From: Takakia lepidozioides
Lineage: Eukaryota > Plantae > Bryophyta
Assembly: GCA_030704615.1 (NCBI GenBank)
Contig: CM060734.1
Coordinates: forward strand, 16,430,001-16,494,000
DNA length: 64,000 nucleotides
Direction: 5' to 3'
Shown: positions 32,529 to 64,000 of the stretch, in pieces
Numbering within the stretch: position 1 is the stretch's first letter
Layout: the number at the start of each line of letters is the position of its first letter
The notes under the pieces: generated by a model
The model's input: the letters and a program-made list of their open reading frames with translations, nothing else
The model's database searches: none
What the model was told of the DNA's origin: nothing
Made by a program: the position numbers and the translations under genes

Positions 32529-32840
32529 ATCACCCCCCTAGCTAGTGCTTAGGTCCCTCTAAGTCCAGGTAGCCACAAGATGTGATAGTGACCATAGCCT
32601 CACTAAGTCCTCCACCATTATCCCTACTACACTCAAACTCGATAGATCAAGAGGCCGGGTGCAAGAGTTACCCCATCGTTAGTCGCCGTCTTGCAACCTG
32701 TGAACTTGAGCTTGGGATCTCATGTATTGACTCCTATGAGCTTGGCCTCCCATGTCTTGTTAGCTGCCTCCAGTCATGTCCACTGCCACTATCCCAAGCA
32801 GTGTGGACACAACCAATCTCCGTCAGGAACCTTCTCAAGA
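32529..32840 (-). mobile_element. End of PHD finger, 3' UTR and PPT of the DNMT/PHD-gypsy (piece C, distal part)
   Basis: Minus strand LEKVPDGDWLCPHCLG* (32840-32789). The UTR is homologous to 11590-11843. Confidence 0.9.
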
Positions 32841-33566: not shown

Positions 33567-33568
33567 CT

Positions 33569-33580
33569 TGGTATCAGAGC
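33569..33580 (+). promoter_or_regulatory. Primer binding site, tRNA-iMet
   Basis: TGGTATCAGAGC, 2 nt after the LTR end. Confidence 0.93.
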
Positions 33581-33621
33581 TTAGAGTTCAGTACGCGATC
33601 GTCCTTGGGATTGGCCTCATC

Positions 33622-38177: not shown

Positions 38178-39081
38178 TGGGGACATCAACCTTGGAGCAT
38201 GGGGGAGGAAATGCATGCTTAGCCCGGCTTAGCTAGCTTAGGGATCCGATTGCAAAAACTTGTATTGTACAAAACGTGCTATAAATGAAATGGATTCCAA
38301 ATGTTGTGCGTCCTATTTTGTTTGGAATGGTGATGCATGGTATGGTTGGCTAGTGTGTAGAATGCATGCTAGCTTATAAGAGTGGGAGAGGTAAATTGGG
38401 TTAATCGTATGTTTGCGTAGTGCCGAAATCGGGTGACTCCTATCCGAGGGGCAAGGAAACTTGCGCCTTCTTTGGGAGTTCACATGCTAGTGCGTACCTG
38501 GCGCGTGTGCGTACTATAACTGCGCTACCGAGGGGGTTGCCTTGTAGTGCGGGCTAACACGGAAGCTACGTGCTTCCGTTCACGTACTATAATCATGTAG
38601 CCTCGGGATGAAGTCGTAGTGCGGCTTCGGCGTGTTCCCGTACCTCAGGCCAGCATTCCAAGGCGGACCCAATTGTAGTGATTGGGGCGCACGGTTGGTT
38701 CAAGGTTATCTTCCTAGTCAAAGAGGGTTCCAGGGAACCCTTGCTCAAGGTGATGCCAAAAGCGGCATCATGAGCGATCGCAAGCAATGTTGTTGCAGTA
38801 AGGCGATTCGATCCTCGGGGAGGATCGTTCCTTGGCCTTGAAGTAGGCCAAGAATAGTGCACTGGGAAGAGCTGGAGAGGCTCCACCCTTGGCCGGGACT
38901 TGGAAGAAGTCGGCCGAACTAGCTAGTGGAGAGTAGAGTCAAGTGTGGGGTTTGGTTCTTTGCCATGGGACGCCATGGTACGGAAACAAACTCCTTGATG
39001 TGGGACGCCACAACTTGGATGTTCGTTTCTACAAAATGGACAAGTCGATGAGGACATCGACTCCCTGTTGGTAGGGGTGTG

Positions 39082-39810
39082 TGTCGCGGCCCTTTGCCTT
39101 GAGGGCAGGGGGTCGGGACACATGAGGGGCTGCCCCTCTGGTGGGGGCAGCGGCAGCGATAGGTATGGGGGGGCTGAAGCACCCTTGAGTGCCCAAGGCA
39201 CTCAAGGAGGCGGAGGCGCTCACTAGGTGGAGTCCCGCACACCGGGTTGCGGTGGGGGTGGCTCCACAAGAGGTGGTGGTAGCTTAGCGGGACTTAGTGG
39301 GGGTGGCATAGGACTCACCATGGGGGTGGAGACCTCGTGGTGGGAGTCGTGGGGAGTCTTGGGACTCATCACGGTCCAGAGGGCCGTGGTGAGTGGGCCA
39401 AGACTCACCGCGACTCATCACCGGGAGTCGAGGGTTTTCGTGGTGGTTCGCCATAAAATGGCATGGCTGGTTGTGAAACCCCCGCGGACAGCTACAGAAG
39501 TATATATAAGGGGAGTAGTGGCCCCGAGAACGGTGCAAGCCCGTTGGTGACCAAAAACTAGTGAGTAAGCGAGCGAGCCGGAAAGCGACCAAAGAGTGGG
39601 GAGCTGTTCCGGACTGCCATCTACCAAAGGGAATTCTCCTAGGCCCAAATAGGTGGAGGGTTTAGTGGGAATCGAAGGGGGGGCCGTTATGTCCCGGTGA
39701 GCAGCCGAAGCTCCAAGTTGGCCCGGGCGGCCAGGTTGGGAGTCAGGCGCGCGCATCGGAGCGAGTAACTATGACTTGAAGGGGAGCTTACCGAAGTGAG
39801 GTGCGCGACA
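39082..39810 (+). repeat. 3' LTR of chromovirus
   Basis: Preceded by PPT GGTAGGGGTGTG and followed by TSD CAAGA. Confidence 0.95.
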
Positions 39811-40031
39811 CAAGAGGTGGTGTCAAGCATCCCATATGCCAACCCCTTGAGCATCGATCACACACCAGCATGGTGGCTGCCCCTTTGGCAGACCTACAGA
39901 GCATGCACCTCAAACCTGCAGGTACCACTGCCAAGTTTGGGTCAACTCTGCCATCGACATTGGGAAGGTGACATGGCGCACAATTACGCACATGGTCCTT
40001 CCAAGTCATGCCATCCTGACCCTCCAAGATC
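39811..40031 (-). mobile_element. N-terminal part of the PHD finger of the DNMT/PHD-gypsy (piece C, proximal part)
   Basis: ILEGQDGMTWKDHVRNCAPCH...CMLC..CDRCSRGWHMGCLTPPL, which joins 32840 in frame across the TSD. Confidence 0.92.
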
Positions 40032-41419
40032 CATCGTCCTCATGAAACTGCATTGGAGCAACGTGAAAATCTACACTTGTACATTGCGAGACCATTGTCA
40101 ACCGTATCGTTTAAAGCACAGCCTCATCGGACGTTTTCTTCTTAAGGCCAAGCATCCTTGCTTGCCTCTGTTTTTGAATAGCGATCGGACGTTGAGGTGA
40201 GGAACATGCGGACTGTTGCCTGCAGTCATTTAGTCAGCCTCTAGATGTTCGAACGGACGACTGGAATCGCACGCCTTCAACTGTTGCTCCTTGTAGGTAC
40301 CCTAGTCGTATATACTCCTGAGCGCTTTGGCTTCATGGACGTCGCAGACTCTTCCATTTGCGGGCCATACTAATAGCTGTGTCGATGTTTCGCCATTTCT
40401 GATACAAATGGTCATTGTTCTTCACTATCTGTGTGCAATTCGGCTCTCATGGCTCAAAAACACTCAAAAAACAATTCGCGCATTTTTTAATGCACCTACA
40501 TATATGGCGACCAATGGGGAACACTCGTCCCGAGGGTGAAAAAACCCTGAATCACTGGTTTGACAACTCTTTAAATAGGTACACACATTACTAAAACATG
40601 ATTGGCTTTACCATTGACCTAGACCTTTTATTTGGCTCAAACTGGAAGCTAGCAAAAACTATAACTCTGAACCTGCATACTTTCTACTCATGGGGGGTTC
40701 TTCTCTCTGGTCTTGCAGTTTGTCTTGTTATGACAATATCCTGGTGATCCCTTCGAATTCACTCTTCTCTTTTGTGCTTTCTCATTCATCAAGAAGATAA
40801 CTATGACCGAGTTTTGTTCAAGAATTAATGAGCTTCACCGCGGTGTGCTTCGCCCTGGTGGCCATGTGTTCGATTTTAAACATGCTCCCGTCTTCCCCTG
40901 TCCGTGTGGTACATTCTCCGAGTTTGACTTCCAAACTATCCTTCCACTTGACGGCCACTTTTCTGACGTTAACCCGCGTCCACCTGTCACTGACTCTATG
41001 GACTGTGCAACCCGCGTAGGCTGTGTTGGGCTGTGACAGGCTGTGTAATGATGTGATGGGCTGTGATGACTGTGTGATGCTGTGATGGGCTGTGATGATT
41101 GTGTGAACACCTGTGTTCTACGCTCAAGCCATACACATTCGGCTTAACGATAAGTACTTCATGCTCCGTTGGTGTTATTGGTGTAGGTTGTGATGGCATC
41201 TGTGTTACCCTGACACCAACAACTCTGATCATATGACATAAGGTCCTAGCTATTGCTAGAACGAAAAATTTTGGCGTCATTATAGGAGTCAATATGCCCC
41301 TCGCCTGATAATATAAAAAATTTGAAAACCCATTCCTCTTCGGAGAGAGTTCGAGTCCCAGATAGTTTTTTTTCAAAACCGCCATTCTCCCCCACCGGAC
41401 TGGGTGTGAATTCCCAAGA

Positions 41420-42841: not shown

Positions 42842-43721
42842 TGACGAGCCTCGCCGCGCGCGCAATTGCGAAGGGGAAAAATGCGACGTCGATCCGGGGC
42901 TTGGAGTTCGGCGACGAGGTGGGTTGGGCTCAAGAACCGCCCACCCGTGAGATGTGTCGCTAAGCTTGGCCGAGGGTCAGCGGTCGACGGAGGGAACTCC
43001 TCCCGCTATCCTAACTACCAGCCAGCACAAGGTCCAACTCCTATGCTTGCGAGGCAAAATTCGTTTGTGTGACCTACGGAATCTACTCCTAATTAATTGC
43101 CTTCCAAGACTTCTTTATTAGCGTTAATACAGCTTCACCCCGGAGCTATCAGTGCCCCTGGCAGGTCCTCTTCGCCTAGAGTGACAGTGGCCAAGAGGCC
43201 CATGGAGTTGTTTTTTGTTTTCCTTGTCTTGAAGTACTAAGAAGGGAAGGGGCTAACCCTTGAACACTAACCATGCAGTGGGAGGTTCTAATGGGGATGG
43301 GTGTTCCTTTTCCTTGGCCACTAGGCATTCTTCACGTGTGAAGCTAACCAAAAAAAACAAGAAAAGCTAGCCAACTAACCCTTGGATAGATGCTTGTTAG
43401 TCGGTGGGAACCCTTCATAGCATTTTTATTTTTCTTTGTTTTCTTTTGTAACAAGTGAATGAGGCCGTGTGCCATTCAAGCTTGCATTATTCTCCAAACA
43501 TTACCTTGGTAGTTGAGTACTAACCCCCCCCCCCCTTTCGGAGAAGGAATGGGGGAAGGCTAACCCTTGGTTATGTTTATTTTTTGCTTTATAAGGTTGC
43601 TGGGAATTTATTTTTGCACTAAAAATTAATTTCCAGGCTTATTTTCCTAGTCCTAGAAGGCCTCCAAGCATATAAGAGCTTGGAAGACCTTACTAACATG
43701 GGTAGTTAGGTGAGCTAACCC

Positions 43722-44519
43722 TTGGGGTTAAGCCATGATCATTCAACCTCACCATGTACACCATCAAGGACAGTTAAAGCAAGTGCAGGGATGGCTACAG
43801 AGGGGCAGTATGGTGCGCCACATTTTATGGCGGGGCAGACCTCAATGCAGCAGACGTCACAGATCCCTTTGGACGGGAGGGAAGGTTTACACGACACATT
43901 ATTGCAGGGTTCAAGCACCAGTCCTGGAGGGACACCGGATCAATTGACGGGCGGAGATCGCCAGAATGCATTACGGAGGGATAGGAGAGTGGTAAAAAAA
44001 GAACTCAAACAGCAGGCTGCTACCAATGTGGCTGCAGGGAAGCGCAAATTTGTCATTGATTGCAATAGTGATGGTGCCCCACAAGGCCCTGCACGCAGCC
44101 AATGGATGACTGCATTACAAGGCCAGTCCATGCGACTGCTGGACTGGAGTGTAAAAGGTGAAGATCAGCCAGTAGAGGCGCTTAAGAAGATCATGGACGT
44201 ATTAGCGCAGGACTGGGAATATGGAACTCCTGGGATTGAATTGAAGGAACTTACAAAGATCATTTGTAGACAGTTGAAATACCAACGACGCAAACTGTTT
44301 AAAAACCATTACTGTGCGGGGTCGCCCAAACCTGAATATGTTCCAGACAAAACATGGGCACAGTTGCTATCAACGTGGGCATCAGAAGGCTTCAAAAAAC
44401 AATCTACCAATGGTACAAAGGCACGGGGGCGTGTGAAAAAGTTGTTCCGATGTGGAGTGAGTGGTATGAGTGGAGTGGCAACAAGACTGGTAAAATCTAT
44501 GCCTCTACAGCCTATATGA
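43722..44519 (+). CDS. CACTA/En-Spm TnpA-like (Transposase_24-like) ORF fragment
   Basis: KPEYVPDKTWAQLLSTWASEGFKKQSTNGTKARGRVKKLFRCG matches the P..V....W..L...W.S..F...S.....R pattern. Confidence 0.6.
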   Translation: MGLSHDHSTSPCTPSRTVKASAGMATEGQYGAPHFMAGQTSMQQTSQIPLDGREGLHDTLLQGSSTSPGGTPDQLTGGDRQNALRRDRRVVKKELKQQAATNVAAGKRKFVIDCNSDGAPQGPARSQWMTALQGQSMRLLDWSVKGEDQPVEALKKIMDVLAQDWEYGTPGIELKELTKIICRQLKYQRRKLFKNHYCAGSPKPEYVPDKTWAQLLSTWASEGFKKQSTNGTKARGRVKKLFRCGVSGMSGVATRLVKSMPLQPI

Positions 44520-45579: not shown

Positions 45580-48089
45580 AATTTTTATTTTATTTTTAAT
45601 AATAAAAGTGGGGAGGGAGGGGAACCAGATTCTTCTTTTTCTTTTTCTTTTTCTTTTCCCAAAGGGCGTTCGCCATTTAGTTTATTGGAGGGGAAAAACT
45701 AAACCGCATTGATGCCATAAGGCAAGGAACACATCAATTGGATGAGGGACGAGCCCAGACGAATGCAAAAGAGACCGCCTTAATGGCGAATGCCTGGAAT
45801 GTTACCTGGATAGCTGATAAGCCATAGAGGCCTTGGGAGAGGAGGATGGACGACCATTGTCGTCCAGACCGCCACTCCACCTAATGATGCAAGAATGTAT
45901 GAATGCGAGTGCTTGACGTACTCCGAGAAAAGCAAAGGACCAAATAACGTAATTGCCTGCCTACTGTAGCCTAGAGGATGCATGCAAGCAAGTTTAATTT
46001 TGGAGGAACATGATGCAGTCGTTTGCCGAAATTCAGCTTCACCAATCGTTTCCCTTTGAGGTGCCTCCAATTGATATCTCGGTCGTAGTATGGAGAATCA
46101 GGGCAGAAGCGTGGAGCGGTTTCCCCAACACTGAGGAATTGAGCTCCAGATGCAGATGGTTGGTGGAGGGCTTGAGCATATAATTCCCTGTTTAGCCCAT
46201 GATTCGTTGAAGGCCTCGTGAAGCTGATGTTGAGCCTCTGGATGCTTTGCCGATGTCTGCAGTCATTTTAATCCATGTCTTTCGTCCTTCAGTTTGAATG
46301 TCAAAGAAAACCATAACAAGCAACAAAGAAACCATAGAATTTGAGGTGCCTAAGGTCCAAGCGCATCTGGTTTTCCAAATGTGCCAAAGCCTAGCAGCTC
46401 TAATCGTGTCAAAAGATACAACCTGTTTGGTTACTGGGTCATAGTTCAGCAGCAAGTTGATTGAAGTGAGTGGGGTGAGGTGCCAAGTTTGAAGAACCGT
46501 GTTGAGGAGTGGCCAAACCTTAGAAGGGATATAACATTGAAAGAGGCAGTGCTCGAGGGACTCAACGATCCCCAACAAACAGCGTATGCAGAGCAAAGCG
46601 TTCGAGAATTGGAGCCAGCAGCCCACTTTGAGGATTCTATTGGCCACCTGCCAGAGGAAAGCCCCGATTTTCGTAGGTCTAGTTTTCACCCAAATTCGTT
46701 TCCCTCTTGACCATAAACCAATTGAAATGGTGTAAATCCGGTTGTAACCTTAAAGGCAGTGCGATAGGCCCATAATGCAGAAAATAACTTCGTGTCCCAA
46801 TCACTACCAGTGCCAGAAATGGTTTTCGTCAAAATACCACATAAAAGCCCATTGGTCTTTTCTGTCTGCCCATTAGCGCGGGGATGGTATGGCGTAGTCT
46901 TTCGATGTTTATTCATGTACTTAGTCGTGAGTTGCTCAATAGTAGAATTCAAGAAATGGGTACCACGATCGCTCACCAATTCCCGGGGACAACCAAAGCG
47001 GGAAATAATATTCTCATATAAAAATTGAGCAACCACTTTTGCGGTATCAGTACGAGTAGCCATTGCTTCAGCCCATTGAGTAACGTACTCCGTAGCAACA
47101 AGAATATAACGCTTTTGACCATTATTGTTGCCAACATTCACCTTGAAATCCATAGGCTCCCCATTTGGCATCCCATTTTGAGGTGGGAATGGTTGTCGAG
47201 CTAAGGCATTTACAAGCTTTTTTTTGCTGTGTACTGAAAGAGTGAGGGTTTTCCATCCAGCGCCCACGACCATTCATTTGGATCCAATTGCAAGGCCATG
47301 AGAGGCTTGTGTCCAATCCAGACGAATGTGTTTCCGCATCGCCAGCATATGATATCTGACCCTGGGGGCCTCATAGGGTTCATGTTTGCAATGGATAACC
47401 ACTGGCAGATTCTAACCGGGGAGTATCCCCCCCCCCCCCCCACGTATATCAGCTGCATTTGAGCAGGCTGCAGGATTTTCGTTTGTGGGCAGCAGTCCAA
47501 AGCATGCCCAATGATGTTGATGTGGTTGCTTTCCAGAATGTAAATCACCTGCAGTGGCCTTGTTGAGCATGTGATCTAGGAATCCGGAAGGGGAGGTAGC
47601 GGCCCCCATTGGAGGATGTTTATCCATGGGACTGGAATGGATTGGATGATTTTTGCATAACCCGCGTTTCCCCTTGTGGATCCCACAATCTGGTTAATTC
47701 GATATTCTTGGCTCTAGAAGACATTGCCTGACCAGATGTTCCCTAATTGCGAGATACCAAGGTTGTCCCAGGCAGACCATCGTTTTGCAGAACCACGATC
47801 CTCCAGGCTGTGGACGTTCAAGTTAAGAAAGAGGTGTTGACGGATTATTTCTTCATATGTGGTAGGTTCCTCTTTAATGAGGTAAGGTCTTACTCTGCCC
47901 CAGGCTTTCCAAATAGATTTCCATAGAGGAGATCTTGGTTGCTTGTGCTTGAAACCATTGATGATCCAACGCTCGGAGCTTGACCATTGTGCAGACTTGA
48001 GGGGGGAGCTTTGAACAATGTGTCTTAGCACTAGGGGCCTCCACCAAGAAGTATGGGGACCGAGTAGTCTCAAAATCCATTTTCCAAGC
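45580..48089 (-). mobile_element. L1/Tx1-type LINE, C-terminal part (post-RT region, zf-RVT, 3' UTR with A-rich tail)
   Basis: LGKWILRLL...SPLWKSIWKAW, and zf-RVT KIGAFLWQVANRILKVG...CIRC...ESLEHCLFQC...WHIWKTRC. A-rich end near 45580-45600. Confidence 0.85.
46709..47124 (-). mobile_element. Isolated gypsy integrase-core fragment inserted in the LINE
   Basis: YILVATEYVTQWAEA...SRFGCPRELVSDRGTHF...YHPRANGQTE...TPFQLVYGQE, with no LTR. The LINE frame resumes on both sides. Confidence 0.85.
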
Positions 48090-49645: not shown

Positions 49646-50664
49646 TCTGGCCCTATTGTGATAACTAACTTGACATATAAGGACACCGTATTTTTCTCCA
49701 AGCAGTGTTCTAGCTGGTAATGGTTGTGTCAGTAGGTTAAGTCAATGTCATTGATGGTGAGGTCTTGATTGGGTGTGATAGGTGGACGATCCAAGATTGA
49801 CATTCCAATATACTAGTAGTAGGGCATTGACATGGGTGTGCAATGTACACGGTAGCAACTAGCAACCATGATGGGTAGTATATAGGTGTGTCAATGCAGA
49901 GCCCGACTATGCCCAAATATACTACTAGTGATAGGACTCTCCATCTCAATACCACCCCAACAATGCCTAATCAAACATCACATCTATTACATCAAATTTA
50001 TCTACTGTCACGATATATATCCACAACAAGCAAAACTCTCACAACAGGGAAAAATATGCTCCATTAATCCTAGCCCTTCAACAACATGGATGGAAAGTTG
50101 GACCCCGTAACACTCATCACTGCTAGTGTCTTTGGCAACATTCAGAGTAACTCTCTCATTAACAACCTTTTATTGCCCTACCCCTCAGTCACCTCTCGTC
50201 TAAAAATATACATGCCATTCGATCCTCGGTAAGAAGATGAAGTGGCTTTTGAGTTAGGCCGGCTATGGTTGGAATCATCTCTCTCTATCTTATAGGTACC
50301 AATATTTATGAGTGAAAACCATGGTTTTTAAGTCCTACATAAGGAGCTCATATAGAGGTGTTGTCTGATTATATGTAGTCCATATGGATGATACAGAGAG
50401 GACATTGGCTCAAACAGTGGGCCGTGTGTCTCATGCAAGGGGTTGGATGTGCAAAGTCGATACTTAGGTGACCGGTATAGTTGTGGCCAACAAATGTTTT
50501 TGCGCTGATTGCCCTTATATATATAGCATAGCGGAAGCGGAGGCCAAATCTGAGCGTCACTGAAGGCTGCTTTGGAGATCGAAAATGTATAGAAACTTTA
50601 CGGGCTAAGGTGCTTGATTACAATCACAAGAATAGTGACACCAAGTCTCAGACTCACCTAAATT

Positions 50665-52504
50665 TTGAACGACTCAGGCAAAATCGTTGATTCTTGTGAA
50701 GATTTGAGTAGTTTTTCTCTATTTTCATTGCTCTGGATTAATTGGAAAGGTTATTTTTCCTTGGCTTCTAATTCAAATCTGGTGAAGATCCTTGAAAGTG
50801 ACCAAACTGATCCTCTAATCTTCCTAACATACCTGGAAGCAAGAGCAAACCTGGACAGCCATGAGAAACAGGTGGAAACCAAGCTCAAAATCCAGGCGGG
50901 GATAAATTGGTGAAAAGATGTCAAAATATTTCTTTGACAAGGTCCAGGTTCATTTGGCAAGACAAGAAATCCCAGAGCTCAATGATGTCCATTCAGAGGG
51001 TCACACATTCTGACCCCAAAAATAATCACAGACATTGCACGGCGACACTTCTCCGAGCTTTTCAAACAAAGAGATCAGTCGATTCCCATTGACCAGGCCA
51101 TAGAAAAATGCATTCAATCTCACCTTGTTAAAATCAGCCCCCTGGAAGCAACGTCCTTGGATGGGATGTTTACTGCATTGGAACTGTTTAGGGCTTTGGA
51201 GTCCATGTCAAACCTCAAGGCCCCGGGGGAGGACAGAAATATGCCCGTAAAATTTTACAAGATGATGTGGCAGTATATCTCATCCGATTTTTGCAATATG
51301 GCCAATGCCATCAAGGCATCACAGGACATGCCCAAGGAAATGGCTCAGGGAGTCATTGTTCTTCTGTTCAAAAAGGGAGACAGGAAATCCATAGCCAACT
51401 ACAAGCCCATCACCCTCCTCAATGCCTCCTATAAAGTCATTGCAAAAACCTTGGCCTTGCACCTCCAACCGCTGCTACCCTCACTCATCAGACCTAGCCA
51501 AACAGGCTTTATCAAAGGCACATTCATCCTAGACAACATTCTGCTCCCTCATGAGACTCAATCGTTTGCAAAAGACTCTAACCTTGCAATTGCTATGCTA
51601 CTTCTTGATTTTGAGAAGGCCTTTGACAAGGTAGAATGGCCAGTCTTAATGCCTACTATGCGAAAGGTAGGTCTGTCCTCAGGCTTTTGCAACTGGGTCT
51701 CAATCCTTCTCAAGAATGCCACCAACAAAGTGCTTACAAATGGATTCTTATCCTCCCCATTCCAGCTACAGCGTTTGGTTCGCCATGGATGCCCATTTGC
51801 ACCCTTCCTCTTCTTGATTGTGGTTGACTCGTTGGGGCATTTGCTGGAAAGTAATGCAAACATCACACGCCTTACTATCCCGCACCAGCATCCCAATGAC
51901 TTCACATCAAATCCTCAATGTTTGTTGATGACACAGTTCTATATCTGAAGGCTACAAGCCCAGACAACCTGGCCCAAGCCATTTCTATCTTAAATGTCTT
52001 CTACTTGGCCTTTGGCTTCAATGTAAACTGGGACAAGACGGTGGCATTGCTGGTTGGGGACAGATCTGAATCTGAAATTGAGGACTCCCCTACCTGGGGC
52101 CAAGAACTAGGGCTTAAATGGCTTAAGGATGGCGAAAGTACCAAGCTCCTTGGTTTCCCCTTTGGTATTAACCTAACTGAGGATCAGCGAATAGGGCCCA
52201 TCATTGAAAAATTGAAACGCAAGCTCGTCTTCTGGGGTTCCAGGCACCTCACTCTCACAGGCAGAGGCCTGGTGGCCAATCAAATACTTATGGCCAGTAT
52301 TTGGTATTTTGCCTCTGTATAGAGTCCAAACCCATCCCACTTAAGAGAAATCAAGAGAATCATTCGCAACTTTGTCTGGGGAGCCAGCTCTAATTCTCAA
52401 TTCATCAGGATAGCGATCTCATGGGCCCAAATATGCCGCCCCCGAAAGCATAGGGGCCTCGGGATCCTGGATCCCTGCAGTCAGATAGACGCTCTGTTTG
52501 GAAA
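50665..52504 (+). pseudogene. L1/Tx1-type LINE ORF2 reverse transcriptase region, frameshifted
   Basis: KAPGED, NYKPITLLNASYKVIAK, QTGFIKG, LLDFEKAFDKV, VRHGCP, FVDD, NWDKT, GGLGILDP. Left boundary approximate. Confidence 0.92.
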
Positions 52505-52551
52505 GAGGGTAGCTACCGTGTGAGCAGCTCACGTGAGCACACTAATCGTGA

Positions 52552-53535
52552 GGTGCGGTGGTCTATCAAGGCTTTATCACACAAAGTCTGAAACTCCCCC
52601 AAAAACTCTCTCCCTTGGTCCGTGAGTACCTCAGCTGGAGCACCAAATCGGCTAAGCACACGATCCAAGAATGCATACGCAGCCCCCTCACTAGCCTTGT
52701 CAGGCAATGGAACCAACTCAATCCACTTGGAGAAGTGCTCCACCATCACCAATACATATCTGTGGTGGCGCATAGTCAGTGGCAACGGTCCTGCGAAGTC
52801 AAGACTCCACCTGTAGCCCAATCCCATGATTGGTAAATGATGCAACTGTGGTGTAAGGGTGTTGAATGAAGCACGCACCCTGTCACACACCATGCACCTA
52901 GCCACAAACTGTTGCACCTCTGTATGCATACCACGCCACCAATACTGCCCTTGCAGTAAACTGTGAGTGCGTCGCACTCCAAAATGCCCCAACTCCTCAT
53001 GGGCATGCCGCACTAACCGTGCACGCTGTGTGAGGTGAGGCACAATCCTCACCCGACCATCCTCCCATACTCAAAGCAGGTGTATCCCCTCCCACTTGAA
53101 CCTCTTGGCTCATTGTAGGATCCGATCCCTCTCCTTGGCAGTCACACTAGCTGCCATGTCTCCAGTGTGGAGGTAGTCCAACACAACCGAATCCTCATGT
53201 ATATCTCTGGCACCACCTGGCTCATCACTAGCCTCAGGGTCCTCAGACACTCCGTCTACAGTCATCCATGTTGTAGGTCCAACCTGACATCCCGATGCCA
53301 AGATACACAAAAAGGCAGATGCATGCCATCCCGGCACCATCTCCTCGTCCGTTTCACCATGCCACCGAGCTCCAGTGTCATCCTGCTGGCTCGTGCATGG
53401 ATTGCGATTCAATCCATCCGCATCCCTATTGACCAACCCCGGTTGATGCACAACCTGAACATGTCTCTCATGCTCCTCCACCGTAGCACGAGAGGCAAAG
53501 CAATACCTATAAGCCTCAGGAACCGCCGTATACAT
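52552..53535 (-). pseudogene. Residual RT/RH junction and integrase (HHCC plus core N-half)
   Basis: ATVEEHERHVQVVHQPGLVNRDADGL...HEELGHFG...CMVC...SLDFAGP...VLTDQGREF...IDHRT. Confidence 0.9.
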
Positions 53536-53645
53536 CGTCTCTCTCCTCTAGTGACAATAGGTCCAATGTCAGGCTCCCAATTGCCCTTCGTAACTGCAAC
53601 CTTAAGTCCAGCAGACTTAGAGGTAGAGGACGCGTCCCGTGGTTG

Positions 53646-56600
53646 CTATGCCGCAACCTCTTGAGCAATACTCCCTACCTGCTCAGTCAATGATAAGGCC
53701 TCATTCTGCCCCATCATCTCATCCTTGAGGACCTCCTCAACCCGAGAAGAATCCCCAACCTCATCCATCACAGCCGCCTTGGCTGCCAACTCCCTTTGAA
53801 CCTCGAGCACCTCCCACGTGTGCCATGGATGCCTGCACCCCGTGGTCCTCACATGCTCGCCCCCACTCACTACCTGTACCGTCTCGGTAGGTAGAGAGAC
53901 CATCGAGGGAAGTGTATTCCGCACTCTGCGTTGCTCAGCCATAGCCAAGCTGATAATCCAGGTCAAGCAATTGAGATCCATTGCTTGCCCCAACACTTAA
54001 CGACGTGATGCCTCAGAAAGAGACGACACTGCCGTGGTACCAGTGGTAAAACCCATTGCCCGCTCACGCTCGTCAGCATTAGGCTCCACTAATTGCTGCA
54101 ACTGAGCATCCCACAGGAGGCCAGGTCCACTATCCCGGAAAGCATGCGATCCTGGGAAGCTCAGCAGTGTAGGTAATGCTGCTCGTGGTTGACCCACCTT
54201 GTTGACCACTGCCAAAGGCAAACGGTCATCGTGTCTCACACGCTGAGACTGCCTCCATGTGTCCAGAATGCTATCCACTGTGAGATGTGCTGGCCGCTGT
54301 ACCCCATCAAATGCACGCTTGAGCAGTGCGGGTGGCATCAAGTTAATCCACCATAGTCGTGGACGATGAGCCCGTGACCCCACTGTAGCTGCATCTAGCA
54401 ACACTGCTGACCCAAGCCACGACCGGACTTGATGCACACTGGCCATCACCCTGGCCCGAGAATCGCCCATCAGTGGCACATTCTCCAAGATGTATGCTGG
54501 AGATACAGCTTGATGAAGATACAAGTGGCGCAAAACCTGCACCATCTCCCAAAATGGATCCGACCTCGAGTCTCGCAATCCATTGCCATGCCCAGCTGAT
54601 GAATGCCCTTGGCAGGGCCAACCTGCCACTACCAGATCAATAGAGCCAACCCGCTCCAAATCCTGCGCCCCCAGCAACGAAATGTCTACTGGCAAGGCCT
54701 GCTGATATCCACGAATTGCAGACACCGACAACAACTCAGGGTACCGCTGCACCAACTGAGCAACATGGGAAAGTGAAACGCGTCGTGCAGTCTCATCCCT
54801 CTCCACATACAGGTAATGCCGAACACGTACACCTGCCTGTAACACAGCAGCCAATCCGGTGTTGATCCCGCCAAACAAGTCCAGAAGACAAATGCCTTCA
54901 TCCGGATACTGCCACACAATAGGTGTGGTGTCCAATGGAGACAACTGAGGTGGTCCTGGTGCAATCCCTGCACTCTCCTCCTCTCCTGACGGTACAAAAG
55001 CCCCCACCCAGGCTTGTTGTACCCGTCGATCAGCATCCCGCTGCAAATCCTTGCTCGTGCCCCACAATGGAGTCTGAGCAACCATGGTAGGCAACTCCGC
55101 CATACCATACATGTCATCCTGCTCTCCCGGAGGTGGCACATCCTCTGAATGAGCGTTGCCCTCAAGCAACTCTATAGGCCAACTCATTGCCGCTGTGAAT
55201 GCTGCTAGTGTCGGCATCTTGCCTCGTTGGGCAACCGCAACTCCTCCTATGAACGTCACAGGGAGCTGCACACGCCGGCCCTCCCCTGACTGCCATGCAG
55301 GCCTATAGGAAGCTGACTCCTCCCAAAAATCCAGGGTGAAGCCCATGGGGTACAACACTGCCCCACCAACCAGGACATCGTATGAGACCGCGTCTGTCAC
55401 AATGGCCTTGGCTCGCATCACTGAGCCATCTGTAGGGTGATCCGGCCGTAGTCTGATAGCCAACTCATGCCGTGTCATTCCCCAAGCCTGCTCCGATCCT
55501 CCTAGAGACGTCCGTATCTGGAAAGGACAAGGCTCCATATCCGCCTCCGTGAGGCCCAAGCCTGCAATAGCAGCTCTGCCCAGCATCAATGGCTGAGCTC
55601 CCGAGTCCAACAAGGCCCGCAGTGGCTGGTACCTCTTGCCTGCCGGTCCACTCAAACAGAAAATGCCATCCTGGTTGTCTAACATGACAACTCCAGGTGT
55701 CACCATGGCGCGCTCAATGGCTGGCCTAGCTGGCAGCTCCATCAACCTGGCAGCTGCAGCTTGCCATGGCGCCGCCGTGGCAATCTTGACCCTCAAATCC
55801 GAGGATCCCTCCGGCACTACACCTCCCACTATCTCCGCAGAAGATGAAGTAACCTCCCCACTCTCACAGAGTGTAGCTGCCAGCCTGAACATCTCAGCTG
55901 GTCTTACCCCCGGCGTCGCAATCATGGTAGCCGAGAACAATGGAGTCTGGCACACAGATGTGGCCGCTCCTAGCAGCACACTAGCTGCCGTAGCCTTGGC
56001 AACACTAGGTAGTAGTGCTACCCGTGTAGCTCTCCCCAATGGCATAGTAACCTCCGCCTCGGTAATAGTCGGGCGAGAACTAGGTGCCATGGATGGCGTC
56101 GACACTGTCTCCGCCAATGTGAATGATTGAGGAAGCCTAGCCTGACGGCTTGCCTCCCCACGCTGTGGATCCAACTCCACCTCTGCACCTCGTGGCTCAG
56201 GAACTCGTCCTGCTCCTCGAGTCACGGCTGCAGCAGACTCCACCTGCACTAGTGGTAGTGCTGCTCCACACATGAATCCCATGCCTCCCATATCTCCTCC
56301 CTCAGGAGCAGGAGGTGGACCATCCGGCCTTAAAGCCGGTACCACCTGAGCTGTAGCCATGGCAGCGAGCCTCTGCTCTAGCTGCTGAAGCCGGTTGGCC
56401 ATGCGTTGGTCAACACCCTGACCTCCGCGTCCTTGGCCATGTTGAGCTTGCCCTTGGCCTGCACCTCGTGGCTGGCCACCTCGTCCTCTCTGGGCTGCTC
56501 CACCTCGCCCCCGGCCACCATTGTTCCCTTGGAACTGGCCTGGGCGTAACTCAGGATGCAAACCATAACACTGGGCCTCTCCATGCCCGTGCTTGCCACA

Positions 56601-56996
56601 ATGCCCACACTGCAACTGTGCAGGCTGTGCATGTGCCGGCCCTTTGCCTCCCTCTGGGCAATCCTTCTTGATATGGGGTCCTCCACATGTCCAGCACACC
56701 ACATCTGCCCGTTGTTGGCCAACAAATGAAGGGAGAGACCCCTGCATCTGAGGTCCTCTCTGCCCTTCCCTGAGCTTCACCTGAGCCCCTTTGTTGCCTT
56801 GAGCACGTTGAGGTAGTGGTTGGTTAGGAGCACCACTACCCCGTGCTGTCTCCTTAGCAAATCCCACCATGATCACTCGTTCCTCCACCATGTTGAGCTC
56901 TATCCGCTCTGCCAGCAAAAACACATTTGCTAAGGTGGGTTGGGCCGCTTGTAGGAGAGTTGCATCCCGCACCCTTCTCCTCAGCTCCTTGTCCAA
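53646..56996 (-). CDS. Gag C-terminus (2 CCHC knuckles) - aspartic protease - C5 cytosine DNA methyltransferase (DNMT3-like) fusion; one in-frame stop at 53997-53999
   Basis: Knuckles CWTCGGPHIKKDC and CGHCGKHGHGEAQC; protease LLDSGA. DNMT motifs: I LLDLFGGI, II VERD, IV LVVAGWPCQG, VI ILENV, VIII AHRPRLWWINL, IX ERERAMGF, X RR*VLGQAM. Confidence 0.93.
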
Positions 56997-57826
56997 TATC
57001 CCATATCAGAATTGGACTGCCTAAGGTCCGTAACCCCTTGGGTTACATTTATCAAGCGCCTCATGCAAGTGAAAGCCTCCATCAAGCTCTCGGTCGGCTT
57101 CCATTGGAACTCTTGCAAGCTTCGCAACTTCTCTGTCCTCACCCCTTGGTAGTTCCTCCTCAACTCTTTGAAGAACTCCACAACAGGGTTGAAGGCAGGC
57201 ACGGGTACTAGTGCCGGTGCGGTAGTGGCCTGGGTGGACGTCGTAGCTACTGTACCACCAGTCCCACTAGTCCCTCTGCTACTTTCTGAAGCTGCCGGTG
57301 CAGCGGCAGGTGTAGCCACTGCCCTTGTGGCTCTAGTGCCCCTAGTGATGGAGACATAGTCGGGTGACCGGTACATCCTCCACTCCTCGATCTCAACCTC
57401 ATGCCCTCGCCTGAACTCATGGTAATCATCCATAGGCGGCCCCTCAAGGTGCTGAAACAGCCCCTTCCATGCCATGAAAGGCGTTAATAGTTGTGGATTG
57501 CGCATTTGCTGCAAATCACACCAACTATCAAACTCTTGGATAAAATCATCCAACTCGATGGTGCCCACCGCCCCAGAGTACCTTCGTGGCCCCTTGGTAG
57601 CTCCATACATCTCCTCCATTGTGTCCCACAACAATGGCAAAGAAACAACTTGCACCGCCGATATGAATCCTCCTGATTCACAATCCAAATCAGAACCTTC
57701 CGTAGAAGACATAGGAGGTGAAGGTGGCCTAAACCGCACACCTCGTCTTGTGTACCCACTAGTATCGCTAGTGCTCGAACCGGCACTGTCCCCAACAACT
57801 AGTGGCACCTCCGTGTTGACACTCAA
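56981..57826 (-). CDS. Gag N-terminal region, frameshifted from the downstream gag-PR-DNMT ORF
   Basis: Capsid-like RRYSG..ELDDFIQEFDSWC...EKLRSLQEFQWKPTESLMEAF. The alternate frame AVQF*YGILDKELRR joins the 999-aa ORF near 57020. Confidence 0.75.
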   Translation of the reverse strand: MSVNTEVPLVVGDSAGSSTSDTSGYTRRGVRFRPPSPPMSSTEGSDLDCESGGFISAVQVVSLPLLWDTMEEMYGATKGPRRYSGAVGTIELDDFIQEFDSWCDLQQMRNPQLLTPFMAWKGLFQHLEGPPMDDYHEFRRGHEVEIEEWRMYRSPDYVSITRGTRATRAVATPAAAPAASESSRGTSGTGGTVATTSTQATTAPALVPVPAFNPVVEFFKELRRNYQGVRTEKLRSLQEFQWKPTESLMEAFTCMRRLINVTQGVTDLRQSNSDMGYWTRS

Positions 57827-58494
57827 CCGGTCATGAACATGTCCCTAACCCCCTCTCCACAAGGTAACCGGGTAGAGAACCTGTTGCGGCTTAGGGTTTG
57901 GAATACTAAGTTCCTAACATAGCCTACACTTGTACCTGCATCCACCGCAAACACTCTTATGGTTGGCTGGTCATCACCTCCAACCTCACCACAGGAGAAA
58001 CAATGATGGTCTGGCTGGTCATCACCCCAGCCTCACCATCGACAGCATGCTCTAGGACTGGCCGGTGATCAAATCCGGACCAATCACCTATAAAAACAAG
58101 CGCCCACACAAAACTAGCATGGCGCACAGTCAAGCCTGCAGGTATGGAGGGGATCCAAACACAAGAAATCAGAACGACAACTCCCCCACACCAAAAACAA
58201 CTCCACGGTGTTGCTCCTGCAAGGACACCCCAGCCCAAACCCGGACTGACTCTTGCCTCCACCTACGGAAAGGTCTTGGCCTAATGAGAAGGTGAAACTA
58301 TGAGGAAGAGAAGCTAAAGCAATGCCTAACCCCAGCATGCCCTCATCCCAACACTCTTCCTCTCCTCTCTTCCCTCACTTGCATGACCATGGGAATATCA
58401 TGAAGATACTCCTCAAACCGCCCTCCACGAGCTTCAAAATTCGGCCTTCGAGACCACATACCAATCCTTAGGCAGTCCACCAGTGCCTCCACAA

Positions 58495-59575
58495 GTCAGC
58501 ACAGGCCCACACAGCTCACAGGCCACAGCCTGTCACAGCCCTACACAGGTCACAGGGTCACAGCCCCACAGGCCGCAGCCTGTCACAACCCTACAAAGGT
58601 CACAGGGTCATAGCCCCAAAGGCCACAGCCTATCACAGCCCCTCATAGCCCCATAGGCCACAGGGCACAGCCTGTCACAGCCCGACACAGGTCACAGGGG
58701 TCACAGCCCCAAAGGCCACAGCCCGTCACAACCCCACAGGCCACTAGGCACAGCCTGTCACAGACCGTCACAGCCCCACAGGCCACAGGCCATAGCCTGT
58801 CACAGCCCCTCATAGCCCGTCACAGCCCCACAGGCCATAGGGCACAGCCTGTCAAGCCCCTCACAGCCCCTCACAGCCCCACAGGCCACTGGGCACAGCC
58901 TGTCACAGCCCCTCATAGCCCGTCACAGCTCGCCACAGCCTGTCACAGCCCATCACAGCCCCACAGGCCACAGGGCACAGCCTGTCACAGCCCGCCACAG
59001 CCCCACAGACCACAGCCTGTCATAGCCCCGCACAGCCCATCACAGCCCCACAGGCCACTGGGCACAGCCTGTCACAGCCCCTCACAGTTCGTCACAGCTC
59101 GCCATAGCCTGTCACAGCCCGTCACAGCCCCACAGGCCACAGGGCATAGCCTGTCACAGCCCCTTATAGCCCGTCACAGCCCCACAGGCCACGGGGCACA
59201 GCCTGTCAAGCCCCTCACAGCCCCACAGGCCACTAGGCACAGCCTATCACAGCCCCTCACAGCCCGTCACAGCTCGCCACAACCTGTCACAGCCCGTCAC
59301 AGCCCCACAGTCCACAGGGCATAGCCTGTCACAGCCCCTTATAGCCCATCACAGCCCCAAAGGCCAGGGGCGCAGCCCATCACAGCCCGTCACAGCCTCG
59401 AAGGCCACTGGCGCAGCCCGTGACAGCCCCAAAAGGCCACCGGCACAGCCCCTCACAGCCCATCACAGCCCCAAGGCCACCGGCGCAGCCCGTCACAGGC
59501 CCTCACAACCCGTCACAGCCCCGAAGGCCACCGGCACAGCCCCCAAGGCCACAGGGACAGCCCGTCACAGCCCCA
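58495..59575. repeat. CACAGCCC/GTCACAGCC minisatellite (~1.1 kb) in the element's 5' UTR
   Basis: Dozens of 10-11-bp CACAG-core units with higher-order structure. Confidence 0.92.
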
Positions 59576-61125
59576 TCCATGGCCGCTCTGGCAGTTTAGC
59601 CATTTCTCCAAGGGGTTTAGCCACGCCAAGCTAGGGTTTGTGTCTCTTGGACTCTAGGCTTCTTTCCACCGAGCTATGGCGGCTGTGAGGAAATCAGCAA
59701 GGTATTCTTGCTCTTTCGGCTCCCACACACCACCATAGTAGCCCTAAGCCATGAGGTGGTTGCCACAAACCAAGCCTTCTTTCTCACTTAGCCTCCCCAA
59801 ACACGCCACTAAACTCAATGGCAAACAACCAAGCCCTGCTGGTTCCCAGCCCTTGTGAGCACTCATTCAAGCACTCTCCTTGGCCATAGCATCTATCTTA
59901 GAGCCTATTCCATCCCCCTACACCTACTGCTTCAAGAGTTGCGCTCCCTTCAAGCTTGAAGTTGAAACCCCAACTCACATAGGCCCTACAAGTGCTTTTC
60001 TTTCACTCCAAGTGGAAACCAGCCCTAGACCTTCCATTCTAGCTCTCTAAAGCTTGAAAACAAGAGCCTCAATGGGCTGAAGGCATGCTCCACACATGCC
60101 CCACTCTCACCATAAGAGAATCAGCTCCTTTGCTTCATTTCTTGCACCCACAAACCTGAAAATACAAGCTTTAGCAGAGCATGCTCCACATGCCCTACAG
60201 GGAAACCAGCCCCTTCCTTCCTTTCTTGCACTCCCACACCTGAAAGTGCAAGCCTTCACCAGGCTAATAGCATGCTCCACACATACATTGCCCTCACATA
60301 AGGGAAGTCAGCCCTTCCCTCTTCCTTGCTTGCCCTCCAAGCTTGAAGATGGAAGCTTCAATGAGCTGAATACATGCTCCACACATGCAACCTCTTCACA
60401 CAAGAGATATCAGCCCCCTATCTTGGCTCCTTGGCTCCTTGATGCTCTCTAAGACAAGACTAAGCACTCCATAGCCCTTGCCAAGCTCCTGAAACCCTAA
60501 GGCTTACATTTCCAGCCACAAGACACTCCTCTTGTGGTGCAAGAACTTTTCTTCCAAGCTCTGAAACCCTAGGTGCACATTCCATGGCCTTGCCATACCT
60601 CTTAGCTCCTGTTCCAGCCTCGCTCTTGCCATGGCAAGAGCCCTCATACCGCTGGAGTTTCAGATTGAAACCCCCAACTCAACATAGCCACAGATGCATT
60701 GGCTTGCATACAAGAGAAATCAGCCATCTCTCTTCACTCATACCTCCTTATGAGCTTGAAGTTGGAGCTCCCGATAACTGTGACTTACATCTAACACCCT
60801 CGCAGCTCCACATTGCTGCAGCTCCTTAACTTGGCCTGCAGCTGAAGAAGACGACCACCAGTTCACCCACTCGAGACCAGCATCTCCCCCGCTTCGCACT
60901 AGAAGCCCAAACTTGGTTGCCATAGCATTGAGCTATGCAACGCCGCTCTTCAACATAGGCTACCCGCCTCTCTATCCATTGCAAACCTGCAACCTATTCG
61001 CCTTTGCACTCTATCCACTTTGGATAGGCTCATGCACGGATCCCTGCACTCTAGGCTGAACCGCTTCTCATGAAAACACAAGTGCTACAAAACAACTCGA
61101 ACCTGGCACTCACAGACTCGAGCTG

Positions 61126-61137
61126 ATCTTTCTCGAG
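61126..61137 (-). promoter_or_regulatory. Candidate self-priming primer-binding site CTCGAGAAAGAT
   Basis: Directly follows the ...TTATCA end of repeat X. Complementary to ATCTTTCTCGAG inside X. It does not start with TGG as a tRNA PBS would. Confidence 0.6.
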
Positions 61138-61450
61138 TGATAACGAAGAAGAATACAAGCACAAGCTCATGCGAGCTCACAAAGCTGAAGCATAAACTCA
61201 TGCATATATAACCTTATCACTCAAATACAAGTCAAGCCAAGTGCACCCCACGCCATGGGGAATCCACACTACGGCGCCATAGCTAGGCGCGGTGAGGCTC
61301 AACTCGAGAAAGATGAGCCTCCCACGTTTGCCGTGAAGATAACCACTCCAGGGCCTAAATCTGCCTTGACCCCTGGATTGACACTTGGGCCAATCCCAAA
61401 TGTCAATATGTAAAAGCTAGCTATTTCCTAGCTAGTTTCACACTAGTGGT
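61138..61450 (-). repeat. 5' terminal repeat X1 of the DNMT-gypsy
   Basis: Nearly identical to 32013-32324. Lacks the outermost 14 bp seen in X2. Confidence 0.9.
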
Positions 61451-61777
61451 TACGAGGCTATAGTTTTGCGAGAGGGGGTTCCAAACAGTGAAGTAGCTTG
61501 CCTAAACTGCGATTGGTTTCAGTTTGTCATCTGCATGCTAGCTTCAAAAGGAACAATGAATAGGTGGCGAGAGCCGAGGGGAGAGATTGACGCATTTTTG
61601 GAGAGGCACCACTCCACTGACCCTCTCCAACGTATGCCTAGGGGTGGTAGTGGATCAAAAGCAGGGGCAGACTTGGTTTTGGTGGATCTCCCTGATGGTC
61701 AGTTTGTGAGAGGGATTGGCCGAGACCATATTGTGTCGGGCTTAGCCCAAGTGTCTTACGAGTGGTTATGGGTTCAA

Positions 61778-61890
61778 ACCACCTTGTTGGTTGTTACAAA
61801 GGTGTCCACCTTCCTACCGGAAGGCAGTAGCCCTTCTCGGTCAAGTGACACCATAAGTTATGCTTGCTTCGGCAACGCGTCCACCTTTTT
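61778..61890 (+). repeat. Structured ~110-bp repeat (copy 2)
   Basis: Matches 3603-3715 with about 3 substitutions. Confidence 0.8.
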
Positions 61891-62060
61891 AGCCCAGATG
61901 CGTCCCATAGTTGGTGCCGACTATGAGGCCCAAGTAGGCCCACCGTCCCATAGTCGTTGCCGACCATGACTCCACCGACTACTACCGTGACTGCTGACTA
62001 TAACATTCATTTGGCAATACATGTTAGTGTCTGTAGTGTGCACTCTGTGCACTAACTACA

Positions 62061-64000
62061 TTACTTTTGCGAATACAGAAGTAGATGGCAATGTAAGTAA
62101 TGTGCAAACCTGTAAACGAGCCTCCGGGCCGGCAAAGACCCACCAGGCTGCTCGATAATTGGCCAGCTTTGGCCAGGCCCATCATTCATCTCGCACCAAA
62201 ACAATTCTTTCCAATACTTAAGGTGGTAGTCATCCACCCAATCTGAGAGGGACTTGAGAGTGTCGGTGCCTCTTCCGGGGTTGGTAGCTGCAAGAACCCT
62301 TTCTGAACCAGCCAGTCCAACTGGCGTTGCGCTTCCTCTTTTTGCTTCGAGTCCACGAAACATGTCACAATATAGGCTTACGACATAAACAGAAACTTAA
62401 AGCTAGAGCAAAGAATGCAAGCTCTTTACCTGGAACCACCATGTCATTTTGTTGCACCACAAGCCGAAGACCACATCTGTTGGAGCATGGGGAAATTTCC
62501 CTTCTTTCCTGGTGGTAGAGTCTGTATTCCAAAGCTTTAACCATGATTTCCTTCTCCGCAAGAGTGACCTCGCTGGTGGCCAGCATCTGCAACTTCTCCA
62601 AAGTCATTTCAGGCTTCCGATTGACGGCGAGTGACTTGTAATGAGTGGTTATCTCAAACAAAAAACCAGTTCCCAAAGCAGGATCGCAAATAGAAGAATA
62701 TTTAGCAATTTTGGTGTACCACTTCGTCCTGTGAACTTGGAAATTGCTCGCAAGCTTCTTCCTGATGAGCTCGGTGTTCTCGGCGGTGGCAGGCAAGTGC
62801 ACATGGGCATCCAAGCAGGCGTTTCTGATTCTACGGAATCCCTCCTGACCCATGTACTCTATGAGAGCGTCTTGCGGCATCGTCATCCAATTCCCGTTCC
62901 GCTTGTTCAAGCACTTCTCGTAGACGTCTAGTGGAATAGCTGTTTCATACTGCTCAACAGGTGTTGTTGCGCACTTCTGGAAGTAGAATAGCTTGTGTGG
63001 AAGTTCGAAGGATATATTTTCTCGATCTGTAACGCTGCAAAACGCACAGTAAAGGGCCTTTTAGTCGGCAACGACCTCATGGAAATTCGTCTGCTACCTT
63101 GAAGAACCTCCAAATAGTTTCTGGGTAAATAGCAAAGGTCCCGTATTCAATCTACGAAATTGCTATAGTCGTCTCCGACTATAACAACAGCCTCTACAAC
63201 CTGCAAACAATGAATGTGGCAGTTTTGTGCGACCTCCATCACTAAACCAAACTGTCGAGAACAAAAAAGGCCTATGAAGGTCAGTCAAGCTATACATCTG
63301 CTAACTGCTATAGTCGGCTCCGACTATATCAGTGGGAATACCTTCAACCTTAAACAAGACTGCTGGGAGTACAGCTGAATGGGGAACTTTAATAATCTAT
63401 TCAGAGTGTAATTGTTTTTCACTGTGCAGGGGATGCTACAGTGCACATCCTTTTATATGGAATTTGCCATAGTTGGTCCCGACTATGACAGTTTATCCTT
63501 GAGATTCTGTAACCGATTTTGATGCAGATTCCACAAATGCAACACTTGTATTCGGATATGAAACCCAAGCTCATGTGAGCAGAAGAGGGTATTGAAACTC
63601 ACACATTCATTGGATTCATTGCACATCAAATTAGCCCCATATCTGAACTCCTCACATCCATAATTTTTGCGTTCACCCGGTAGAGTTGCCCCCAGTTTCA
63701 GTCTCAAACTCTTGCAGGAACTGGGCTTCAGCTCGTGGAACCGGTTTTGTGGGAGACTACTCCGCCCTCCCTCTGATTGCCTTCTGCTTCTTACTCTTTG
63801 CAGGTGAAGTGACTGCTCCATTTGAATCTGCACTGCCCCCTTCTACTTCATTCTCTTTGGGGGGGGGGGAAGCGGATTGCTCCGGTTCGTTATTCTCTTC
63901 AAGCACGGGCTGCTTCTTCTTGCTCTTTACTGGAGAAGGGGATGACCCCTGCTGGCGATTGTCCATCAGCTTCAACCGTGCCTCTTTCTCTTGTGCTTTA
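62061..64000 (-). pseudogene. Degraded spliced gene of unknown function, associated with ATAGTCGGTACCGACTAT repeats
   Basis: Collinear minus-strand ORF pieces (63975-63483, 63113-62365, 62363-62110) with frameshifts. Shares its repeat family with the MTase-like gene at 29.6-30.9 kb. Confidence 0.45.

Follow-up and report, generated by a model that had tools for sequence, protein, structure and literature searches.

A decayed Ty3-like retrotransposon with a DNMT3-like methyltransferase and split direct repeats in the moss Takakia lepidozioides

The stretch analysed here, 64,000 nucleotides of Takakia lepidozioides DNA (assembly GCA_030704615.1, contig CM060734.1, positions 16,430,001 to 16,494,000 of the forward strand; hereafter the window), carries on its minus strand, at 52552-61450, a copy of a Ty3-like retrotransposon that is built as Gag, protease and a DNMT3-like cytosine methyltransferase (DNMT), a stop, and then reverse transcriptase (RT), RNase H, integrase and a PHD finger, all between split direct repeats. 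We describe the domain order, the DNMT3-like motifs, the selection on the DNMT, the split repeats, the TG...CA ends and the 4-bp target duplications of this element, and on balance we favour the reading that the copy is a decayed member of the KnitGypsy-Dnmt3 lineage, in which the DNMT likely methylates the element's own cDNA and the integrase likely inserts it from a circle.

Layout and decay of the copy

The features of this copy, counted from the first letter of the window, are as follows.

61138-61450, minus: repeat A1, the 5′ end of this copy, 97.8% identical to repeat A2 of copy 3 (32012-32338); family read depth falls beyond A1
61303-61318, minus: segment inside A1, 15/16 complementary to the primer-site position (controls at most 10), likely self-primer
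61122-61137, minus: primer-binding-site position, directly after A1; first bases not TGG
57845-61121, minus: long 5′ leader with a tandem-repeat block at 58497-59575 (self-matches; high family depth)
56981-57844, minus: N-terminal part of Gag, resembling the N-termini of Gag-protease-DNMT proteins
54000-57005, minus: stop-to-stop frame of 1002 codons with two CCHC knuckles, aspartic protease and DNMT
56696-56658 and 56609-56568, minus: zinc knuckles
55610-55596, minus: protease motif LDSGA (DSG at 55607-55599)
53970-54908, minus: DNMT3-like C5 methyltransferase domain (Pfam, PDB matches, motifs)
54884-54864, minus: DNMT motif I
54617-54609, minus: catalytic PCQ
54485-54477, minus: ENV
54371-54339, minus: AHRPRLWWINL
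54071-54048, minus: ERERAMGF
53999-53997, minus: TAA breaking the DNMT domain just before motif X
53640-53648, minus: stop TAG-CAA-CCA closing Gag-protease-DNMT, likely read-through signal
53330-53645, minus: RT N-terminus, RT remnant and end of RNase H
52552-53160, minus: integrase, H2C2 (PF17921) and core (PF00665), with stops (Pfam)

A sequence-only reading that preceded this analysis had placed the knuckles, the protease DSG and the DNMT in one 999-aa frame; the single frame and its coordinates hold, and its length is 1002 codons. The integrase that it saw following is borne out by both Pfam domains, but it is truncated, and RT and most of RNase H have been deleted in between.

This copy is dead. 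A 1-base frameshift near 57025, an indel relative to other copies in the contigs, severs the Gag N-terminus, and the TAA interrupts the DNMT. About 1.25 kb of RT and RNase H is missing through two deletions, with breaks near 53514, 53489 and 53459, and one contig of run X12, perhaps an RNA run, whose contigs served element structure only, has 1303 bases where the window has 54. The integrase is cut off internally at 52552, where the contigs show a loose end, and the copy holds no PHD. Indel and loose-end positions were read from contigs of four runs placed on 50500-62000. The truncated integrase abuts a low-copy remnant of a long interspersed nuclear element (LINE) at 50986-52510 (RVT_1, E 2e-19), and a zf-RVT fragment lies at 46192-46749. 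At the opposite end, A1 lacks its first 14 nt, TG terminus included, compared with A2 of copy 3; the frame at 61436-61969 borders this end and may have clipped it. A six-frame Pfam scan of the leader returned zero matches, and of the 29 frames of the window that were scanned, none was identified as a host gene.

Family sequences mark the same interval. Summed family depth in run X1, which may be the source sample, steps from about 100 to 0.2-1.2 million across 52.4-61.6 kb and is equal over DNMT, gag and integrase, and the same rise is seen in run X7, which comes from a different study. Contig depths added up in this way do not give a copy number and serve here only to mark a step.

The methyltransferase, its family and its position beside Gag

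The DNMT carries motifs I to X in non-permuted order, with the catalytic PC and the ENV, and in this copy motif X is interrupted by the stop; the motif order, the position of PCQ and the TAA just before motif X agree with the sequence-only reading. Of 66 related loci, only 4 share the TAA. When the stop is written as X, the domain matches PF00145 at E 1.5e-9 (38 bits against a cut-off of 22), and its best PDB sequence match is DNMT3A (E 7e-8), then DNMT3B/C, with DRM (1e-4 to 8e-3), M.HhaI (0.016) and DNMT2 (0.48) matching more weakly. All Foldseek matches listed for a weak structure model (pLDDT, a per-residue confidence score, 56) are DNMT3A/B/C. By these comparisons DNMT3 appears to be nearer to the domain than DRM, DNMT1/2 or the bacterial enzymes are, as its DNMT3-like signatures had suggested earlier.

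A homologue search with the DNMT found 240 proteins of near length and 73 longer ones, and a DNMT profile found 290 clusters at E<=1e-30 among 1.84 billion representatives. Since this copy is broken in several places, one could suppose a one-off capture of a host DNMT3 fragment or an assembly chimera; this is refuted by the homologues and clusters, by the equal depth over the DNMT and by two contigs of run X8 that span 53953-58262, and we regard its probability as negligible. The closest named relatives are land plants, as the sequence-only reading had proposed, namely Marchantia and Calypogeia (68-73% identical), then Sphagnum and Riccia, and Klebsormidium KFL_009030040, with the domains protease, DNMT, RT, RNase H and integrase, is 43% identical. 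In Marchantia polymorpha, uninterrupted Gag-protease-DNMT proteins are annotated as hypothetical genes. Eighty related loci were fetched, of which 29 have downstream room and some are one genomic site repeated; RT, RNase H, integrase and PHD follow the DNMT, in this order, in 25 of the 29 long loci.

The order protease-RT-RNase H-integrase and a Ty3-type RT are those of a Ty3/Gypsy retrotransposon, and the best match of one relative, P0403, is Ty3 Gag-Pol (E 4e-97). For the DNMT tree (FastTree, midpoint root), 128 rows were kept from 155 by removal of near-duplicates, fragments and most context-less rows being left out. One group, with support 0.984, unites the window and all named streptophyte rows with the 37 rows whose DNMT precedes RT; the 88 of 128 rows whose DNMT follows RNase H make up the other. 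An integrase tree (FastTree, rooted on one outgroup) joins the window with Klebsormidium and Calypogeia, support 0.946, and both trees place the window among Klebsormidium, liverwort and moss proteins. From the shared DNMT and integrase clades we assign the element to the KnitGypsy-Dnmt3 lineage. P0021, labelled as from a bacterial metagenome-assembled genome, nests among the plant-type element proteins of the DNMT tree and is likely a contaminant.

The sister group (P0165-P0322), in which the DNMT lies between RNase H and integrase, has as named members the chlorophytes Monoraphidium, Scenedesmus and Pleodorina; in about half of its proteins the residue before the catalytic Cys is Glu and not Pro, and a G-patch is present in two. 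In the parts of the related literature that we consulted, no report of this group was found. L080, the sole locus with the DNMT after RNase H, has no long direct repeat, and this locus may stop short of the ends. A metagenome scan with a single protein gave zero matches, and two short patterns found no relative in viral and genome contig collections, which is weak evidence.

The sequence comparisons indicate purifying selection on the DNMT. Between the window and the loci, the median ratio of nonsynonymous to synonymous substitution rates (dN/dS) is 0.10 for the DNMT (63 of 80 usable) and 0.086 for the integrase (36 of 38), while RT, taken from copy 2, has 0.072 (12 of 56), the protease 0.18 (15 of 57) and the linker 0.33 (41 of 47). 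Among the loci, 77 of 77 retain the catalytic Cys; in the protein set, this Cys, the ENV Glu and the two motif VIII Arg residues are each conserved in 127 of 128. The DNMT is thus family-wide, constrained and present in copies with RT, integrase and PHD, and not, as the sequence-only reading had allowed for, confined to one copy, neutral or absent from such copies.

In the loci an in-frame stop followed by Gln-Pro lies about 70-115 codons past the DNMT, with RT in the same frame. The stop-CAR-YYN context occurs in 54 of 62 loci, mostly as TAGCAACCC (36) or TAACAACCC (15), and that of the window is TAGCAACCA; this context matches the tobamovirus-type read-through signal UAG-CAR-YYA. Among Gag-starting proteins, 22 of 24 end 67-162 aa past the DNMT, and some deeper relatives, the Klebsormidium gene model included, continue without a stop. 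On both flanks of the stop, the translation of locus L003 agrees with the Sphagnum fallax gene model P0164, which skips the stop itself; gene models therefore hide the conserved stop. The location of this stop puts the DNMT on the Gag side. If the conserved TAG-CAA is rarely read through, synthesis of the DNMT would match that of Gag, and the particle would take up more of it than of RT and integrase, which we consider quite probable, and we give an even chance to the further step that it methylates the cDNA before insertion.

Some results count against a selected, cDNA-methylating DNMT. The window-versus-loci dS is near saturation (median 2.4), close pairs show a DNMT dN/dS of 0.59-0.69 (linker 0.92-1.18), and the DNMT structure model is weak. 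The raised close-pair values reflect decay of the copies: stops occur in 60 of the 64 near-complete DNMTs of the loci. At least one relative, P0456, has protease, RT, RNase H, integrase and PHD without a DNMT, so some lineages can do without the DNMT. In yeast, DNA methylation by the Klebsormidium homologue was not seen, a result that its authors call inconclusive (PMC5890265, seen in part). This lack of activity in yeast would also suit a DNMT kept for another role, such as methylating or binding target chromatin or RNA, silencing new copies to spare the host, or serving the particle without catalysis, options of a kind raised in the same paper, and so would its variable position: of the 128 proteins, 37 have the DNMT ahead of RT and 88 have it behind RNase H. 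The catalytic residues, each retained in all but one protein, argue for catalysis, and the Gag-side position would favour action inside the particle; we hold such other roles to be possible but rather doubtful, and retain cDNA methylation as the working proposal.

Other copies, split repeats and a possible circular intermediate

Two further copies in the window, both truncated like the first, supply the PHD and the 3′ end; the chromovirus listed with them has ordinary long terminal repeats (LTRs).

8680-11940, plus: copy 2, a diverged subfamily (81.5% identical), with RT, RNase H, integrase and PHD
11834-11839, plus: G-tract of copy 2; its B1 ends at 11928 and its A2 starts at 11931
39812-40040, minus: copy 3, end of integrase and first part of PHD
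32789-32840, minus: copy 3, end of PHD
32841-39810, plus: ordinary chromovirus inserted in the copy 3 PHD; 5-bp duplication CAAGA; LTRs 98.9% identical
32341-32539, minus: copy 3 purine tract (32539-32533), then repeat B1 (32530-32341), ending GACA
32012-32340, minus: copy 3 GC spacer (32340-32339) and repeat A2 (32012-32338), starting TGTC
31822-32011, minus: copy 3 repeat B2, the 3′ terminus of the element, ending GACA; 96.7% identical to B1

The chromovirus at 32841-39810 is young, and the 3′ end of a second, 88% identical copy of it lies at 2-1567.

The sequence-only reading had the family end in a PHD finger, which holds for copies 2 and 3 (PF00628, E 1.8e-9 and 4.3e-7) and not for the copy under study; the PHD of copy 2 (11416-11570) lacks its final Cys. 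With a PHD and no chromodomain at the integrase C-terminus, the element is not a chromovirus. Gly occupies the position that we take to be that of the cage Trp in 137 of 145 fingers, and the best PDB matches are CHD4, KMT2D, DPF3 and KDM5A. From the properties of these four fingers, it is reasonably probable that the PHD would bind H3 tails without K4 trimethylation, steering insertion away from promoters.

Canonical LTRs were sought by self-comparison of the window and in the related loci, and none were found. At the 3′ end of copy 3, an A block matching the 5′ end of the copy under study stands between two B repeats, with family depth dropping more than 1000-fold past 31822, right after B2, and the layout A-core-B-A-B is complete in the relatives L039, L059 and L065. 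Full termini and target duplications were read on related loci, all three window copies being truncated. Allowing for decay, the element starts with TGTC and ends with GACA, and a 4-bp target duplication is exact in 8 of the 9 related loci having both ends, 5 of the 9 being A-core-B only. No recombinase family matched in 22 long relatives or in the leaders, and the integrase is of the rve type. The element thus has Ty3-like workings without two identical LTRs flanking the core, and having an rve integrase and target duplications it does not belong to the DIRS order; the label of LTR retrotransposon in the usual sense, given by the sequence-only reading, does not apply, and the element reaches to about 61450.

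The junctions and priming signals suggest how such ends could arise. Between B1 and A2 there is a spacer of 2 nt in both window copies and at 7 of the 9 junctions listed for the loci; copy 3, L003, L018 and L059 have CA-GC-TG at this junction, the 2-nt spacer is altered in four loci and copy 2, and L043/L044 are irregular. A2 abuts B2 directly in 5 loci; in 2 independent loci 15-19 extra bases intervene, and those of L048/L051 include the bases found after A1, at the primer-site position. A purine tract lies upstream of B1. A fixed site inside A, about 160 nt upstream, could pair with the 16 bases that follow A1: 15 of 16 positions are complementary in the window and 12 or more in 12 of 18 loci, whereas locus controls average 9 and reach 10-12. 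The A repeats of two families show no alignment above shuffles, so the pairing has been kept while the sequence changed. A TATA box stands about 26 nt before the self-complementary site in 11 of 18 loci, and none was seen by eye in the window A repeat. A tRNA primer site was judged solely by the missing TGG after A1.

Based on these signals, we propose, with fair but incomplete confidence, that the RNA would start inside A1 and prime itself on the bases after A1, and that the plus strand would start at the purine tract before B1. The linear cDNA would then be B-GC-A-core-B-GC-A and, by the standard scheme of reverse transcription, the repeat unit equivalent to an LTR would be B-GC-A, with the integrase site inside it. 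Joining of the cDNA ends would create the junction of A to B, and a staggered integrase cut within the palindrome CA-GC-TG, after CA on both strands, would yield A-core-B-A-B, the inserted form starting at the TG after GC; we put this step slightly above an even chance. A-core-B would form from one-repeat circles or by later recombination.

The main rival keeps the same element and dispenses with the circle: its ends would be rebuilt through template switching, in the manner put forward for DIRS elements with split repeats, with the RNA running into B2, A2 rebuilding the left end and B1 the right end, and the shared GC being the 2-nt extension that each linear cDNA end offers for ordinary integrase processing. 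Such switching accounts for the occurrence of A-core-B-A-B only, and for A2/B2 junctions that are mostly flush (5 of 7 independent locus junctions). It gives no role, however, to the purine tract before B1 or to the self-complementary site that follows A1, features that two families have kept, and it does not predict the primer-site bases in L048/L051; we consider it unlikely, though by no means negligible.

Several observations also tell against the circle route. A free cut in a two-repeat circle predicts A-B-A-core-B too, and this form occurs in none of the 23 loci with a 5′ end (19 distinct flanks), so the model needs an asymmetry: if the circle route holds, either the choice of site must be biased or A-B-A-core-B products must collapse. 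The A-core-B forms may themselves have arisen by recombination or by collapse in the assembly, the copy in which L048/L051 show primer-site bases at the junction is rearranged, and the full termini come from related loci and not from this copy.

Taking the circle route and the Gag-side DNMT together, we tentatively suggest a Ty3-like clade spanning the green lineage, in which the integrase site has moved to a palindrome inside the LTR, integration proceeds only from circles and a DNMT at Gag levels methylates the cDNA. Methylation could mask the second CAGCTG site, which would explain the single permutation and tie the methyltransferase to the integration route; this is a speculative and rather improbable extension. 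A circle is usually regarded as a dead end for a retroelement, and, if the route is true, here would be one with a circle as its normal integration substrate.

Elsewhere in the window, a repeat of about 660 bp, with 120-bp units inside it, is present three times at 4083-6698; its copies are 97-99% identical, and one is inverted. The minus-strand frame 29623-30084 ends in a stretch resembling, by eye, the S-adenosylmethionine-binding motif of N4/N6 methyltransferases, and Pfam, NCBIfam and PDB gave no methyltransferase support for it. The frames 43719-44519, 26508-27125, 62365-63060 and 61436-61969 have no Pfam or NCBIfam match and are probably fragments of other transposons.

Comparison with known systems

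Chlamydomonas REM1 is said, in papers that cite it, to be a PHD-bearing Gypsy element. PHDs in retrotransposons are known (PMC6673714, PMC9940879 and PMC8557442, seen in part), and Chlamydomonas Gypsy-7a_cRei resembles the present element in its Gypsy polyprotein with a PHD finger of suggested targeting role, but it is flanked by a left and a right LTR, and the domains listed in the part seen do not include a DNMT (PMC9940879). In priming, Tf1/Sushi and Tcn1 are similar, having no tRNA primer site and an LTR segment complementary to the primer-site position, although they are chromoviruses with ordinary LTRs (PMC6317226, in part). The foamy-virus integrase cleaves a palindromic att-att site in a circle, as our proposal has it here; however, the foamy-virus palindrome is the end-to-end junction of two LTRs, whereas here the palindrome would lie inside the repeat, with a separate end junction (PMC1180852, in part). 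Split-direct-repeat DIRS elements share the layout A1-internal-B1-A2-B2, but use a tyrosine recombinase and make no target duplications, while this element has a DDE-type integrase, TG...CA ends and 4-bp duplications (PMC8969392, in part).

The survey behind the REXdb lineages, Phygy and Selgy among them, required two LTRs at least 95% alike (PMC6317226, in the part seen), a requirement by which split-repeat elements would be missed. Split ends would hide these elements from LTR-based annotation, and non-seed plant genomes may contain them unnoticed; they may also add to DNMT gene counts and to host methylation. Why a retrotransposon carries a de novo methyltransferase was left as an open question, the sole plant example being a low-copy algal element (PMC5890265, in part). 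Marchantia polymorpha, a genetic model with uninterrupted Gag-protease-DNMT proteins, makes the question testable.

The capture of a DNMT by this lineage is already published, and the novelty implied by the sequence-only reading falls away, as lineage, domain order and repeat layout are those of KnitGypsy-Dnmt3 (PMC5890265, as far as seen). The text seen of that paper has no mention of target duplications, self-priming, the internal CA-GC-TG site or land plants, and the words 'Marchantia' and 'PHD' are absent from the part of its main text that was seen. A later paper refers to retrotransposon DNMT3s in streptophytes 'as previously reported', and its supplements may include land-plant sequences (PMC12344493, in part); passages of PMC12885004, PMC10952607 and PMC11982613 do not mention the family. 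The literature within reach, which left out most subscription papers and theses, yielded no account of members in land plants, of the conserved stop or of the internal site. The additions that we did not find in print are that the lineage extends to liverworts and mosses, that its DNMT lies on the Gag side, behind a stop that is likely leaky, and that a DDE-type integrase makes the split ends.

KnitGypsy-Dnmt3 of Klebsormidium nitens is under purifying selection and has a repeat layout of the DIRS type, the latter stated in the legend of Fig. 4c only (PMC5890265, in part). It and the present element thus have in common a non-permuted DNMT3-like domain between protease and RT in a Gypsy polyprotein, purifying selection, DIRS-type repeats and the same DNMT and integrase clades, and Klebsormidium integrases also carry a PHD. 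The Takakia element differs in its liverwort and moss relatives, in a very high read depth as opposed to a few algal copies, and in the conserved stop between DNMT and RT, where the Klebsormidium gene model is continuous.

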